NCBI GenBank assembly: GCA_005893265.1
Contig: VBOX01000085.1
Coordinates: 5,017 to 69,016, forward strand
Source of the DNA: Candidatus Eiseniibacteriota bacterium
GTDB taxonomy: Bacteria; Eisenbacteria; RBG-16-71-46; SZUA-252
Reading direction: 5' to 3'
Length of the DNA: 64,000 nt
A program made the translations under genes and the position numbers. A model generated the notes under the pieces. The model was not told where the DNA came from, ran no database searches, and saw nothing but the letters and a program-made list of their open reading frames with translations. This document shows positions 47,985 to 49,356 of this stretch, one piece after another (position 1 is the stretch's first letter; every line of letters starts with the position of its first letter).

Positions 47985-49339
47985 ATGGCACACGCTACGC
48001 GGACCAACGCGACCCAGACGAATGGCAAGGGCGACAACGTCGGCAGCATCATCCAGGTGATCGGGCCCACGGTGGACGTGCGGTTCGCCCCGGAGCATCT
48101 GCCCCCGATCTTGAACGCGCTCCGGATCGAGTACCCGGAGCAGGATATCCACCTCACCGTCGAGGTGGCGCTCCATATCGGCGATGAAGTGGTCCGGTGC
48201 GTGGCCATGTCCTCGACAGACGGCCTCGTCCGCGACATGAAGGCTGTCGACACCGGCGGCCCGATCAGAGTGCCCGTGGGCCGCCAGACACTCGGCCGCG
48301 TGTTCAACCTCCTGGGGGAGCCAATCGATCAGGGCCCCCCCGTGAAGGAGCCCGAGCTCAAGCTTCCGATCCACCGCGCTCCACCCACGTTCGAAGAGCA
48401 GGAGACCGTGGCGCGGATCTTCGAGACCGGGATCAAGGTAGTCGACCTGCTCGCCCCCTACGCGAAGGGGGGAAAGATCGGACTCTTCGGCGGCGCGGGC
48501 CTCGGGAAGACGGTGATCTTGCAAGAGCTGATCCGCAACATCGCCACGGAGCACGGCGGCTTCTCGGTGTTCTCCGGTGTGGGAGAACGGACGCGTGAGG
48601 GGAACGACCTCTGGCTCGAGATGAAGGAATCGGGCGTCATCGAGAAGACCGTGATGGTGTTCGGTCAGATGAACGAGCCTCCCGGCGCCAGGCTCCGCGT
48701 CGGCCTGACCGGTGTCACGATGGCGGAGTACTTCCGCGATCAGGAGAACCAGGACGTTCTCTTCTTCGTGGACAACATCTTCCGCTTCGTCCAAGCGGGC
48801 TCGGAGGTCTCGGCGCTCCTGGGCCGGATGCCCTCGGCGGTCGGCTATCAGCCCACGCTATCGACCGAGATGGGCGCGCTTCAAGAGCGCATCACCTCGA
48901 CGAAGCGCGGCTCCATCACCTCGGTCCAGGCGATCTACGTGCCCGCGGACGACCTCACCGATCCCGCCCCGGCAACCACCTTCACCCACCTCGACGCGAC
49001 CACCGTGCTCTCGCGAAGGATCAGCGAGCTAGGGATCTACCCCGCGGTGGACCCGCTCGATTCCACATCGCGCATCCTGGACCCCCACGTGGTAGGCGAG
49101 GAGCACTACAACCTGGCACGCGCGGTGCAGAAAGTCCTCCAGCGCTACAAAGACTTGCAGGACATCATCGCGATTCTCGGAATCGACGAGCTCTCCGAGG
49201 ACGACAAGGTCATCGTCTCTCGGGCCCGGAAGATCCAGCGATTCCTCTCGCAGCCCCCGAGCAGGCGTTCTACATGGTGGGGACGATCGACGAGGTGTTC
49301 CAGAAGGCGGAACAGATGGGAGTGGCGACCGCCGCGTAG
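47985..49339 (+). CDS. atpD: F0F1 ATP synthase subunit beta, with an apparent internal deletion of about 35 codons and a frameshift near 49256
   Basis: P-loop GGAGLGKT and DELSEDD are present up to [10 protein letters not shown]. The expected FFVAE...GKYV...HLPE block is missing. The canonical C-terminus [27 protein letters not shown] is in another frame and ends at TAG 49337-49339. The track ORF continues in the wrong frame to 49685 as Arg/Gly-rich nonsense. Confidence 0.7.
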
Positions 49340-49356
49340 CCGCGCACGCCCGACGA

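Follow-up and report, generated by a model that had tools for sequence, protein, structure and literature searches.

Results

The F-type ATP synthase operon of the window

The window, that is, the whole 64,000-nucleotide stretch of DNA that was analysed, carries on its forward strand an F-type ATP synthase operon in which atpD lies between atpG and atpC, in the order atpBEFHAGDC. From the atpZ/I-like gene to atpG, the features below are based on gene calls and Pfam matches in the colinear sibling contigs L001 and L004, transferred to the window by BLAST offsets.

42583-42813, forward strand: atpZ/I-like gene, intact
42822-44216, forward strand: atpB, intact
44246-44479, forward strand: atpE, intact
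44494-44985, forward strand: atpF, intact
44982-45527, forward strand: atpH, intact
45544-47073, forward strand: atpA, intact
47077-47973, forward strand: atpG, intact, 298 aa
49357..49641, forward strand: atpC (epsilon subunit), intact, 94 aa; the siblings have the same 94 aa, with PF02823

Two proteins of the operon have unusual lengths or domain contents. AtpB is called at 464 aa in the siblings, which is about 200 aa above the usual size, with ATP-synt_A as its only Pfam match, and its N-terminal extension includes an Ala/His-rich stretch, AAHGAPATHDAAVAHGGAAVAHGDAAQH. AtpC matches the N-terminal beta-sandwich domain only (PF02823), and its C-terminal helical hairpin is apparently absent, in all siblings alike. 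In other bacteria, this hairpin of the epsilon subunit inhibits ATP hydrolysis.

A 106-nt segment is absent from atpD

The gene of the beta subunit is split between two reading frames, as follows.

47985..49256, forward strand: 5' part of atpD, a canonical F1 beta subunit over codons 1-424, ending in ...RFLSQP
49254..49258, forward strand: deletion junction, a CCCCC run at which 106 nt found in all spanning siblings are absent; 2-nt (CC) breakpoint ambiguity
49256..49339, forward strand: atpD 3' remnant, the last 27 codons and the stop codon (49337-49339), in the -1 frame with respect to codons 1-424
47985..49685, forward strand: spurious read-through open reading frame of 566 aa, a product of the frame change, overlapping atpC out of frame

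Translation starts at the ATG at 47985, and P424 is encoded by nt 49254-49256. Over the junction (49250-49267) the window reads TCGCAGCCCCCGAGCAGG. What is omitted relative to the siblings is exactly 106 nt, equal to 35 codons plus 1 nt, with CC as microhomology. The sequence tied to the omitted segment is TTCTTCGTCGCGGAGCCC...GACCACATCC, and the breakpoints in BLAST alignments with the siblings are 49256/49255 on the window side and 8180/8285 on the locus side. The absence of these 106 nt and the resulting frame shift are deterministic properties of the sequence and involve no statistical signal. A sequence-only reading of the window had described a beta subunit that is canonical up to a break near 49256, lacks about 35 codons (104 or 106 nt), and resumes its normal C-terminus in another frame. 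Translation and alignment to the intact siblings bear out this description in every part and settle the size at 106 nt.

When compared with solved F1 beta subunits, the first 424 aa aligned end-to-end, with chain D of 2qe7 as the best match (E = 2e-201). The chain has 462 residues and the alignment reaches residue 406, so that about 56 further residues would be expected in the AtpD of the window. The N-terminal barrel and the nucleotide-binding domain are present, including the Walker A motif GGAGLGKT; a continuous, one-frame C-terminal helical domain following the DELSEED loop, with its QPF..AE.FTG segment, is not. Residues 1-424 differ from the 486-aa protein of the siblings solely at residue 17, and the D17 of the window is common to L001, L003, L007 and L010. 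In a tblastn comparison, residues 460-486 of that 486-aa protein match the 27-aa tail at 100% identity.

All independent copies of atpD are intact

Siblings were retrieved by exact look-up of the 298-aa AtpG of the window, which gave ten contigs from independent assemblies: ENA scaffolds named 'CRIT18-1_SAMN0890284x/5x', ENA k141 contigs, and contig VBOU01000086.1 of NCBI assembly GCA_005893175.1. Their identity to the window is 99.8-99.9% (98.1% for L007), over lengths of up to 12.8 kb, and they represent a soil population of Candidatus Eisenbacteria with co-existing strains. The site is spanned by nine siblings, and in each of them the additional 106 nt are present and atpD is a single gene encoding 486 aa; coming from other samples and assemblies, these contigs reflect the norm of the population and not the reads of the source sample. 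The sequence-only reading had held that raw reads supporting an additional 104 or 106 nt that restore a continuous beta subunit would refute a lesion here. Such an addition (106 nt, giving 486 aa) does exist, although its source is independent assemblies and not raw reads. The intact sibling protein aligns to solved beta subunits over residues 18-479 (E = 3e-226), and the segment missing from the window is gap-free in that alignment. The flanks of the junction are 100% identical to several siblings and 99.8-100% identical overall.

More distant sequences agree. The segment is present in every distant relative that aligned (76-98.5% identity; JGI metagenome contigs and GTDB genomes), which adds about 20 intact copies, and these alignments likewise break at window 49255/49256. 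A 35-mer across the right boundary of the intact sequence has 25 matches, 6 in genome_contigs and 19 in metagenome_contigs. A 31-mer across the junction of the window was matched nowhere in 185,579 species-representative genomes or in JGI metagenome contigs, and the 566-aa read-through product has no exact record among the ENA, JGI, NCBI and Logan gene calls. The lesion is thus private to one assembly, and the gene is intact in independent assemblies of the same population.

Some of the GTDB contigs with an exact match to the 35-nt intact boundary are labelled Rhodocyclaceae (L031), Enterobacteriaceae (L032), Pseudoxanthomonas (L033) and Bacteroidota (L035). The first three gave no longer alignment to the window. 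L035 is 78-84% identical to it across the atp operon, and for this reason it may be a misbinned Eisenbacteria-like contig.

Strain variation and contig ends around the junction

In the siblings, 22 of the 31 variable columns of atpD plus atpC fall at gene positions 1110-1365, and 12 of the 31 lie inside the 106 nt missing from the window. The clustering is due mainly to L001, which has a distinct haplotype over that patch alone: positions 8050-8290 of L001 (window-equivalent ~49090-49256 plus the missing segment) hold ~20 SNPs in ~260 nt, and elsewhere this contig is ~99.9% identical. At the protein level, the patch amounts to M450T only. Its appearance is that of a short tract acquired by recombination from a diverged strain.

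Sibling contigs also tend to end or branch in this area. VBOU01000086.1 ends at window 49361, 105 nt beyond the junction, while L009 ends at window 48882 and L004 at 49942. Four others (L006, L007, L008 and L010) are identical to the window as far as 49607, which lies inside the 3' end of atpC, and from there on consist of unrelated sequence, a structural polymorphism of the population. The branch point is at window 49607/49608 and at L006:7404, L007:7206, L008:7019 and L010:3497. On the alternative branch, epsilon ends in ...DSAEVV and a stop codon (88 aa, against 94 aa in the window), and the next gene encodes a protein with GDVNGDG-type repeats, possibly FG-GAP-like; the window has instead a 193-aa protein followed by tsaD. 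The clustering of SNPs, together with the sibling ends and branches nearby, implies that the assembly graph of this population branches here. The junction thus sits at a place where graph branching is to be expected. The intact sibling sequence has no direct repeats with copies ~106 nt apart at the breakpoints, and CC is all that the two breakpoints have in common.

A second deletion in the window and three in a sibling record

Further siblings were fetched via four other proteins of the window, and all were aligned to it. Across the parts that they cover (1-54825 and 60903-63996), one other large private difference was found; the stretch 54826-60902 is uncovered and might hold further lesions.

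25817..25818, forward strand: second private deletion junction; 111 nt (37 codons, in frame) absent from a GT2 glycosyltransferase gene at 25339-26160

Twelve sibling loci span the site, and all of them encode a product of 310 aa, against 273 aa in the window; exact look-up of the 273-aa form returned no record. Over this junction (25812-25823) the window reads GGCGTG|CCGCTG, and the deletion shows no microhomology at all. The lost piece encodes ...WERVHGFDESLAHNEDTPF..., also given as ...WERVHGFDESLAHNEDTPFALALKRSGARFHFEPSARV, and it holds 3 of the 8 SNP columns of a 1.1-kb alignment of close siblings; one sibling scaffold, L057, ends 224 nt from the deletion. We regard it as probably the same kind of assembly artefact as the one in atpD.

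Private deletions were found in a sibling record as well. VBOU01000086.1 (L005/L052/L062) has three of its own, at the following window-equivalent positions.

27500-27612: 112-nt deletion, in folP
39589-39716: 129-nt deletion, in a STAS/HD gene
46944-47046: 104-nt deletion, in atpA

In ENA scaffold_265 of SAMN08902842 (L054/L063/L002), marks begin at the very same three bases, namely a 2-nt indel, 10 N and 33 N, respectively, and after each mark the sequence absent from VBOU01000086.1 is restored. Such a coincidence of deletions and marks is what one expects of an error-patching step that partly repairs unsupported junctions, and not of natural deletion. All five private deletions, spread over two records and different genes, measure 104-129 nt, and four of the five fall within 104-112 nt. 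A size range this narrow looks like the signature of a process. Similar events therefore recur in the same record and in a sibling one, which suggests that public metagenome-assembled genomes of this population carry several uncorrected local misassemblies.

Another irregularity lies in atpF of L008, where a duplicated 55-nt stretch encloses 100 N (positions 1842-1941, window-equivalent 44636-44690), a gap introduced by scaffolding between contig ends that really overlap.

Discussion

The gap in atpD is very probably a local misassembly or a faulty scaffold join at a strain-variable site, and would then represent no feature of the organism. Independently assembled copies from the same population are all intact, which points to an assembly error rather than to biology. 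The deletion is private, it lies in a polymorphic patch near the ends of sibling contigs, and private deletions of similar size recur. The sequence-only reading had offered an assembly or consensus error as one of its explanations, in the form of an indel plus a collapsed segment. The assembly error is supported by the intact siblings; its proposed form is not, since the lesion is one clean omission of 106 nt with no flanking repeat. The real gene would be the one that encodes the intact 486-aa beta subunit of the sibling assemblies and, with that gene in place, the F-type operon of the organism (atpZ/I-like, B, E, F, H, A, G, D and C) is to all appearances complete.

The error could have come about as follows. 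Co-existing strains differ where SNPs crowd the 3' end of atpD, and again 350 nt downstream, where two alternative sequences begin, and short-read graph assemblers would tend to break or branch at such sites. The assembly may then have linked one flank straight to the other and lost the short variable piece, so that the loss of 35 codons plus one base would produce the apparent frameshift. Bubble dropping, faulty gap closure and trimming at a join are candidates for the software step that we infer. Co-existing strains are described as the chief difficulty that de Bruijn assemblers face, and local assembly errors as prominent in IDBA-UD scaffolds, where Ns are inserted despite overlapping flanks (Chen et al., 2020; PMC7111523). 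IDBA-UD and MEGAHIT were both used for Eisenbacteria-yielding soil metagenomes from Californian sites of the same laboratory (PMC7298704), although a tie between those data and the window or its siblings is unconfirmed.

The strongest competitor is a real and very recent 106-nt deletion in the strain that dominates the source sample, with loss of function of atpD, which we consider improbable. The junction is clean, free of Ns and carries 2 nt of microhomology, all compatible with illegitimate recombination, and a sample-specific variant is conceivable because the comparison is to other assemblies. However, the lesion is private to one record against nine near-identical and about 20 distant intact copies, and its junction has no matches elsewhere. 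Flanks that are 99.8-100% identical to the siblings, in an operon showing no other decay, also argue against it. The second deletion of the window (111 nt) and the three of VBOU01000086.1, located at patch marks, point instead to an artefact of processing, and for a natural event to fall in the same size class as these would be a coincidence.

The function of the missing piece weighs in the same direction. Since P424 pairs in the alignment with residue 417 of the yeast chain 2hld_D, the missing F425 and F431 correspond to F418 and F424 of yeast beta, which line and sandwich the adenine pocket (PMC5608556). An AtpD devoid of the equivalents of these two phenylalanines would not be a working catalytic subunit, and removal of adenine-pocket residues thus predicts a dead protein. 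A real loss of atpD would make the cell dependent on another ATPase or on substrate-level phosphorylation, or else the lineage would be defective. No second F- or V-type ATPase was found in the window, where the intact beta subunit matched by tblastn only atpD itself and two other members of the ATPase family, atpA and rho. The alternative offered by the sequence-only reading, a disrupted essential gene implying a second ATPase, accordingly found no support: the 486-aa atpD of the siblings is intact, and no other assembly has the junction or the 566-aa product. Were the loss nevertheless real in the dominant strain of one sample, free-living Eisenbacteria would be living on another ATPase or without oxidative phosphorylation, and the 111-nt loss in the GT2 gene would speak for an unusual process that deletes about 105-110 nt; we think this a shade less probable even than the deletion itself.

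Collapse of a flanking direct repeat, by the assembler or through replication slippage, is very unlikely. Direct repeats are a frequent source of deletions in the 100-nt range, but no repeat of at least 8 nt occurs at both breakpoints of the intact sequence, which have only CC in common, and this mechanism does not explain the atpD gap for that reason. The deletion in the GT2 gene, entirely devoid of microhomology, is equally difficult to reconcile with it.

Programmed -1 slippage of the ribosome within the CCCCC run, which would yield a functional beta subunit of just 450 aa devoid of 35-36 internal residues, can practically be dismissed: a -1 shift at C CCC C would indeed join ...FLSQP to PEQAFYMVG... 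and reach the natural stop, but this is effectively refuted because all relatives have one continuous 486-aa reading frame with the segment present, so that neither the frameshift site nor the two-frame architecture is conserved, and because the segment belongs to the conserved C-terminal domain, is gap-free against all solved beta subunits, and holds the equivalents of the adenine-pocket phenylalanines.

With a local assembly error as the preferred explanation, the case brings no new biology and its importance lies in data quality. Automated annotation would give a frameshifted or fused atpD (the 566-aa chimera running over atpC) and a shortened glycosyltransferase, and metabolic reconstruction could score the genome as having no working ATP synthase. 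It also provides a recipe for diagnosis that makes no use of reads, in which one looks for independent sibling contigs, for privacy of the lesion, for a polymorphic patch or contig ends nearby, and for the recurrence of lesions of similar size.

Three known systems help to place the window. The first is the canonical bacterial F1 beta subunit (PDB 2qe7, chain D), which the window matches over residues 1-424 and again over the last 27. In the canonical protein, QP is followed by FFVAEPFTG...CDHI, the start of the C-terminal helical domain, whereas the window lacks these 35 residues and has its tail out of frame. The second comprises true pseudogenes derived from core energy genes in genomes that are undergoing decay, to which the window is similar in having an internal deletion and a frameshift in a gene that is still recognisable. 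Unlike them, however, its atpD shows no accompanying decay, carries a lesion found in no relative, and has flanks with near-100% identity to intact copies; the rest of the operon is intact.

The third is the local assembly errors that Chen et al. (2020, Genome Res 30:315; PMC7111523) describe for short-read metagenome scaffolds. These are defined by a junction that has no read support, and the window is likened to them from assembled sequence alone. As in their cases, a stretch of consensus private to one record falls within a gene and gives an incorrect protein-coding sequence, in a region of strain variation. The companion types of error that they describe have counterparts among the siblings, namely the N-run between overlapping flanks in L008 and the N patches in L002/L063 at the bases deleted in VBOU01000086.1.
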